From NCBI GenBank assembly GCA_019057475.1, contig DXJO01000039.1:38640-102639 (forward strand): DNA of 64,000 bases, in the 5' to 3' direction. The notes beneath the pieces are model-generated. The model did not search any database, was not told where the DNA came from, and worked only from the letters and a program-made list of their open reading frames with translations. This stretch comes from Candidatus Thorarchaeota archaeon (GTDB lineage Archaea; Asgardarchaeota; Thorarchaeia; Thorarchaeales; Thorarchaeaceae). A program made the translations under genes and the position numbers. Below are positions 30,734 to 30,946 of this stretch, piece after piece. The number at the start of each line of letters is the position of its first letter. Within the stretch, counting starts at the first letter, position 1.

Positions 30734-30844
30734 TTACCAGTCATCCTCATCATTGAAGTCGTCCCATTCATCGCCCCACTCTTCGACTTCCCAGTCCTCT
30801 TCCTCAGTCCACAGGGCGTCTTCATCTTGCAGCGGGATCACCAC
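30734..30844 (-). CDS. 36-aa acidic Trp-rich micro-protein (DSS1/Sem1-like)
   Basis: Below ORF-track cutoff; (M)VIPLQDEDALWTEEEDWEVEEWGDEWDDFNDEDDW*; TTTTAATA box ~25-30 bp upstream. Confidence 0.6.
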   Translation of the reverse strand: MVIPLQDEDALWTEEEDWEVEEWGDEWDDFNDEDDW

Positions 30845-30946
30845 AGATACTATAGCCGCTCCGGAGCCTATTAAAATTCCCCACGTATGGAGCGACCGAA
30901 GGAAAGATAGCGCTGAACTGTAAGCTCGGTCAGAGGTGAATCAGTC

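Follow-up and report, generated by a model that had tools for sequence, protein, structure and literature searches.

Chaperones and DNA mimics that are small, acidic and disordered are regarded as eukaryotic or phage tools. Prothymosin is approximately 110 aa long and has no aromatic residues, and the acidic (A) motif of WASP, WAVE and Myo1 is a C-terminal acidic run that ends at a Trp. Prothymosin-alpha and linker histone H1 form a pair of a polyanionic disordered protein and a Lys/Ala/Pro-rich polycation (PMC10576128; bioRxiv 2020.04.17.046243). DSS1 (Sem1) is defined by three parts, UBS-II, UBS-I and a C-terminal helix (PMC8442969; PMC4232310). The acidic/aromatic motif of UBS-I in S. pombe is L-W-x3-W, with the Dss1 residues W41-W45 (PMC4232310), and the amphipathic helix that follows UBS-I spans residues 52-62 of the human protein, in which E20, N42 and K62 serve as residue anchors (PMC8442969). 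CSNAP, the acidic protein of the COP9 signalosome, is a short acidic disordered protein that has a single acidic/aromatic region and lacks a helix (PMC8442969).

The window analyzed here is a stretch of 64,000 nucleotides from a Candidatus Thorarchaeota archaeon, and its minus strand carries an unannotated micro-ORF for a small, acidic, Trp-containing protein without a predicted fold (Table 1). The micro-ORF is a real protein-coding gene under purifying selection, and it belongs to a family that is widespread in archaea and undescribed in the literature searched. We propose, at about an even chance of being correct, that its product is a disordered polyanion with Trp anchors that would serve basic nucleic-acid-binding proteins, either by mimicking nucleic acid or as their chaperone. 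The micro-protein shares with DSS1 a small, disordered, acidic and Trp-anchored character, and in the host genus 14 of its residues match the pattern that runs from UBS-I to the helix start; DNA-mimic action is plausible for both. It differs in being half as long, in lacking the UBS-II pattern, the C-terminal helix, a family-wide spacing and a profile match, in the linkage of its family to a basic PaaX/Cas2-like gene, and in residing in a host in which ubiquitin was not found. CSNAP resembles it in the general features given above, but CSNAP is Phe-based, metazoan and bound to a PCI complex, and no sequence link was found.

Table 1. Features of the micro-ORF and its surroundings (window coordinates)
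Feature	Coordinates	Strand	Remarks
MTAP gene	28200..29099	+	Syntenic anchor for finding orthologues
Class I methyltransferase between MTAP and micro-ORF	29598..30671	+	Insert seen in no other genome; does not belong to the system
Micro-protein ORF, paralogue type B	30734..30832	-	Start CTG 30832 preferred; 32 aa; net charge -18; five Trp; terminal Trp
14-codon stretch matching DSS1 UBS-I-like pattern	30737..30778	-	Match is genus-specific
Four extra codons under alternative leaderless GTG start 30844 (36 aa)	30833..30844	-	More likely RBS and spacer
Shine-Dalgarno GGTGA	30838..30842	-	5 nt before CTG; invariant in 8 genus sequences; spacing is family-wide
TATA box TTTTAATA	30869..30876	-	32 nt before the RBS-containing GTGGTGA; genus form TTTTAATA or TTTTATTA; function presumed from archaeal promoter consensus
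Purine-rich BRE-like stretch upstream of TATA box	30877..30882	-	Putative, from sequence and conservation in the genus; would direct transcription toward the micro-ORF
Nitrilase-family gene, divergent	30947..31747	+	Usual but not obligatory neighbour of type B copies

Among six sequences from the host genus, pN/pS was 0.16 in frame, the two remaining sense frames gave 1.85 and 0.85, and third positions accounted for 13 of the 23 variable sites. The genus sequences use all three stop codons (TAA at 30736-30734 on the minus strand of the window), and the DNA diverges directly after the stop. An antisense or shifted reading was rejected, because a low ratio (0.26) was otherwise seen only in the mirror antisense frame, where it is expected from third-position coupling. 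A six-frame scan of the host genome (3.3 Mb, Thorarchaeia, 96% complete) found no second frame of such composition. An earlier note on this DNA had proposed a hidden acidic Trp micro-protein gene with five Trp residues and its own TATA-type box. The selection analysis bears this out, the residue count is correct, and the box is present and conserved in the genus. The same note had placed the start at GTG 30844 and described the product as over half Asp and Glu; in that 36-aa form the share is exactly half (18/36), and 56% is reached only in the 32-aa form. In all eight genus sequences read, GGTGA is separated by 5 variable nt from a CTG that is the same throughout, and the spacer codons change non-conservatively among relatives while GGTGA and CTG do not. 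The 32-aa product from CTG is more likely than the leaderless 36-aa product because GGTGA and CTG are invariant and because the layout of box, approximately 30 nt, RBS, 5-8 nt and start recurs across the family; GTG 30844 more likely lies within the RBS. The micro-ORF is presumably translated. Its AlphaFold model has no fold (pTM 0.16) apart from a 4-residue turn, and the micro-protein is predicted to be disordered. Searched with the peptide and with two alignments, the PDB sequences gave no matches at E 10, and the ESM Atlas returned only nameless clusters of 30-41 aa at 0.80-0.81, which are leads only.

Many family members have a strong RBS and often begin at TTG or GTG. Together with the tiny ORF and its highly biased codons, this would suit a leader-peptide-like sensor, in which translation of the Asp, Glu and Trp codons, and not the peptide, is the signal. 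We think this can hardly be the case, given that no constant same-strand gene lies downstream (convergent MTAP or variable genes follow), that the transcript folds no better than its shuffles (z 0.44), and that an Rfam search of 20 loci gave no match.

Relatives were found by MTAP synteny and by a DNA pattern of four acidic codons, Trp and stop. At least one copy was identified by direct reading in 70 of the 73 Thorarchaeia genomes inspected, and the three misses sit at contig ends. Approximately 16 Thorarchaeia genomes have two copies. Of the paralogue types A and B, the ORF in the window is type B by its position and its W-x4-W-G-D core, and no type A copy was found in the host genome. Further members come from other Asgard families and from Bathyarchaeia-like contigs. 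Few genomes of the largest Asgard family show the acidic-Trp pattern (11/135), and most other Asgard families, the largest included, show no enrichment of the micro-protein family. A census of 400 genomes with the family's own HMM was too insensitive, finding only 11 genomes and missing most known members. The 163 members have in common their negative charge, their aromatic studs and, in most cases, a Trp at the end (131/163, missing in several), and not spacing, with Trp-Trp distances ranging from 3 to >10 in the 163 tails; Atabeyarchaeia-like copies are almost pure Asp/Glu. Shortness and independent expression are likewise conserved. The family is present in nearly all Thorarchaeia genomes and in several archaeal lineages; Pfam, NCBIfam and most gene callers do not see it, and literature searches found no description of it. 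The promoters of type A copies (L199, L204, L207, L209 and other type A loci) have a non-canonical TTTACTC box approximately 30 nt before the RBS and, within the region 30-125 nt upstream, a TTGATA motif approximately 120 nt upstream of the RBS; these elements could be an operator or a divergent promoter of the basic gene described below.

The usual neighbour of the family is an unannotated basic protein of ~270 aa with ~60 Lys+Arg against ~30 Asp+Glu (about +30). Its confident model (pLDDT 84) apparently comprises a three-helix bundle and a pair of small alpha/beta domains. The best fold match was PaaX at E 5.4e-3, which is weak and below the usual threshold, PaaX_M (Cas2-like) matched 8 of 36 homologues, and a wide VIA search returned generic three-helix bundles only. 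The basic protein is present in 88 of 400 Asgard genomes, and its homologues carry the names Asgardarchaeum, Baldrarchaeia and Bathyarchaeales. An acidic micro-ORF adjoins the basic gene at 65/70 Asgard and 56/80 Bathyarchaeia-like loci, compared with 2/802 background tiles, these counts being drawn from related genomes that are not independent samples. The two genes are arranged divergently, in tandem or convergently, and some Bathyarchaeia-like contigs encode fused basic-acidic peptides. In ~33 of the 70 loci a Lys-rich micro-gene of ~20 codons follows the acidic micro-gene; its DNA pattern with two mismatches is too noisy for counting. Two profiles, with a positive control, did not find the basic protein in the host genome, in its genus or in the near-complete genomes of three other genera. 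It was likewise not found in four genomes reached via Jordarchaeia/Freyarchaeota-type MTAP loci, and the Lys micro-gene was not found in the host genome. Given that the search for the basic partner was negative in the host, the linkage is evidence on the family and on type A, and not directly on the copy in the window. A complex prediction for the basic protein and the type A peptide of one genome scored 0.01 and counts neither way.

The two-gene linkage, complementary charge and predicted ferredoxin-like Cas2/PaaX fold recall VapD-VapX/VapW and PaaX, and the micro-protein could be an antitoxin or anti-nuclease that neutralizes a Cas2/VapD-like neighbour, with the window copy as an orphan. VapD requires a conserved Asp (PMC11980593), and the first strands of the basic neighbour, wherever it occurs, contain no conserved Asp; beside the window copy no such neighbour was found at all. 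The neighbour also appears to differ in having two such domains and a three-helix bundle, and in lacking the PaaX winged helix, while VapX has an SH3 fold and the micro-protein is modelled as unstructured. The genes, moreover, usually diverge or have promoters of their own, exist for the most part as single copies and persist through whole lineages, and the orphan copy is still under selection. On this evidence an antitoxin role is distinctly unlikely.

The reading we prefer, a polyanionic mimic or chaperone with Trp anchors, is supported by the conserved charge and aromatics, the polycationic genomic company, the foldless model and retention in Thorarchaeia. The micro-protein would bind basic, nucleic-acid-binding surfaces through charge and aromatic contacts, and binding would shield or release the proteins that bear them, in a manner that may be likened to prothymosin-alpha or to the DNA-mimic role of DSS1, with homology to neither. 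The Lys micro-gene is similar to an H1 tail in composition, by way of analogy. Because searches of the host recovered no basic protein and no Lys micro-gene, the window paralogue would have to act on other clients; it is under selection where these partners were not detected, and therefore its role would need neither of them. Type B copies keep a W-x4-W-G-D core that is more specific than charge alone needs. This counts against the preferred reading and hints at a defined binding pocket. A chromosomal archaeal family that occurs with a basic protein and a histone-tail-like micro-peptide bears on whether charge-driven disordered complexes predate eukaryotes.

A less specific alternative is a general polyanion with no single client. 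It would serve as a buffer for cations or polyamines, or else would form coacervates, with the Lys-rich peptide, nucleic acids or the Lys-rich tails of ribosomal proteins as the other component. Extreme charge, free Trp spacing, the paired Lys-rich micro-gene, retention after apparent loss of the basic protein, and the long Lys-rich eS25 tails of the host and two other Thorarchaeia are consistent with it. We nevertheless regard it as unlikely: linkage with one specific folded protein is stable over distant lineages, the terminal Trp and the type B core are conserved, and the frequent non-ATG starts suggest modest expression. The eS25 frames of Thorarchaeia (G000:C31:21235-22068 (L422); L421, L423) end in a long C-terminal Lys-rich repeat tail with 26-31 Lys in the last 60 residues and a composition like that of a linker histone tail, and this tail is a possible polycationic client.

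The earlier note had read the micro-ORF as a Sem1/DSS1-like protein on the strength of the pattern W-x-D-x-W-D-D-x-N-x-E-D-D-aromatic. All 10 positions of this pattern are matched in the micro-ORF, a score reached in 0/100,000 full shuffles and in 5/100,000 shuffles with the Trp residues fixed; these counts overstate the weight of the pattern because it was chosen after the match had been seen. The pattern derives from the human DSS1 sequence and not from a real Sem1 alignment; that sequence agrees with the three human residue anchors (PMC8442969). The likeness holds locally, over 14 residues that resemble UBS-I, and does not extend to the family. All of the scores of 9-10 among the 163 tails come from the host genus, and the remaining scores closely follow the shuffle distribution. 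Within the genus itself the Asn of the pattern gives way to Gly, Ser or Glu. In the MTAP tree of Thorarchaeia (a single gene with a poorly resolved backbone) the genus has a nested position, and early branches carry pattern-less peptides. The spacing W-x3-W, which equals that of Dss1 W41-W45 (PMC4232310), occurs in the micro-ORF and in 32/163 tails, while hydrophobic-W-x3-W occurs in 0/163. The UBS-II pattern F-x2-F-x4-W is found in 4/163 members, the micro-ORF not among them, and the C-terminal helix region is absent, as the micro-ORF stops at the residue where the DSS1 helix would begin. Nothing scored over the PF05160 cut-off in the ORF, in its 48 relatives or across 400 Asgard genomes, in a search of low power given that HMMER is weak on low-complexity peptides. 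Ubiquitin was not found in three Thorarchaeia by a search that found it in two other Asgard genomes; Thorarchaeia are seemingly without ubiquitin (PMC9192718).

A true archaeal Sem1/DSS1 homologue or precursor, reduced to UBS-I and binding a PCI-like winged-helix or RPA-like partner, would account for a match that exceeds composition and for the Dss1-like spacing. The host genome also encodes a JAB protein and winged-helix domains that score as PCI, though these lie in unrelated, non-lid architectures, and the HMM negatives weigh little where even the family's own profile reached so few genomes. Against descent stand the free Trp spacing, the confinement of the match to one nested genus with a variable Asn, the missing parts of DSS1, the ubiquitin result and the lack of enrichment in most other Asgard families, the largest included. 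The earlier note had named freely varying Trp spacing without a Sem1 profile match as grounds for refuting its reading, and the observations largely agree with that outcome. We consider such homology very improbable. It is far more likely that the likeness is convergent, as the earlier note had allowed for a low-complexity sequence, and we do not class the micro-protein as Sem1, even if the profile searches were of low power. It may still work like DSS1 as a mimic or glue. A broader idea is that the family represents an ancient Asgard and Bathyarchaeia pool of acidic-Trp peptides which, with the polycationic micro-peptide and the basic tandem Cas2-like protein, formed a minimal polyelectrolyte chaperone module and was the source of eukaryotic Sem1/DSS1-type glue, the host genus showing a DSS1-like motif; this we hold to be improbable to a high degree. 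That low-complexity peptides can closely converge on a DSS1 motif calls for caution with lists of eukaryotic signature proteins.

The acidic run with a terminal Trp also resembles the A motif, and the earlier note had raised a link to Arp2/3 binding. A free WASP/Myo1-type motif regulating an Arp2/3-like or actin machine would fit the terminal acidic-Trp of most members and the actin gene in the host genome. That gene is the only one of the actin family there, an ARPC4 search of the host (run without a positive control) was empty, and no evidence for Arp2/3 was seen. The micro-protein is a stand-alone 32-aa ORF with neither a V (WH2) nor a C segment, the terminal Trp is dispensable in several members, and tails of this kind are also carried by TBP and further unrelated proteins. 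The family is also found on Bathyarchaeia-like contigs, while its pattern is rare in the largest Asgard family. We find this reading scarcely credible. A LysW/ArgW amino-group carrier was rejected as well: these carriers have a Zn-ribbon domain and a C-terminal EDWGE ending in Glu, and the micro-protein has neither, containing no Cys, an internal W-G-D only and a terminal Trp.

In the fullest gene order of Thorarchaeia, MTAP is followed by the type A peptide, the basic gene, the type B peptide, nitrilase and a MazG-like gene. Obligate coupling to nitrilase or MTAP was rejected, as genus g4 has no adjacent nitrilase and g5 no adjacent peptide. The MTAP/micro-gene interval of the window holds a lineage-specific insert (29391-30671, plus strand) of Cys-rich frames and the class I methyltransferase, with a stop between them near 29568-29570. 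Other genomes of the host genus have different inserts or none in this interval, and two of its genomes (L041:4099-4341 and L042:1220-1462, both minus strand) carry an 80-aa, highly charged Glu/Arg/Lys helical ORF at the methyltransferase-insert site. A contig of a g5 genome (L046; G081:C236) is near-identical to genus g1 and groups with g1 in the tree; it is probably a binning contamination.

Acidic tails with Trp were also observed on larger proteins. The TBP of genus g5 (L175:1410-2018, plus strand; L171) has an acidic tail with two Trp that resembles the end of the micro-protein. A conserved Cys-rich Thorarchaeia protein of 100-135 aa (L174, L176, L178, L181-L183), which is likely Zn-binding and has no Pfam match, bears a long acidic tail ending in Trp. 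Acidic-Trp tails occur on a DUF1059 protein of a complete 6.0-Mb Asgard genome (L166:2007-2288, minus strand) and at the end of DUF4129 proteins of another Asgard family (L135-L137). In the window, a membrane protein without a Pfam match (32124-32684, minus strand) has a strongly acidic N-terminal stretch of 30 residues and is conserved, with its gene order unchanged, across Thorarchaeia.
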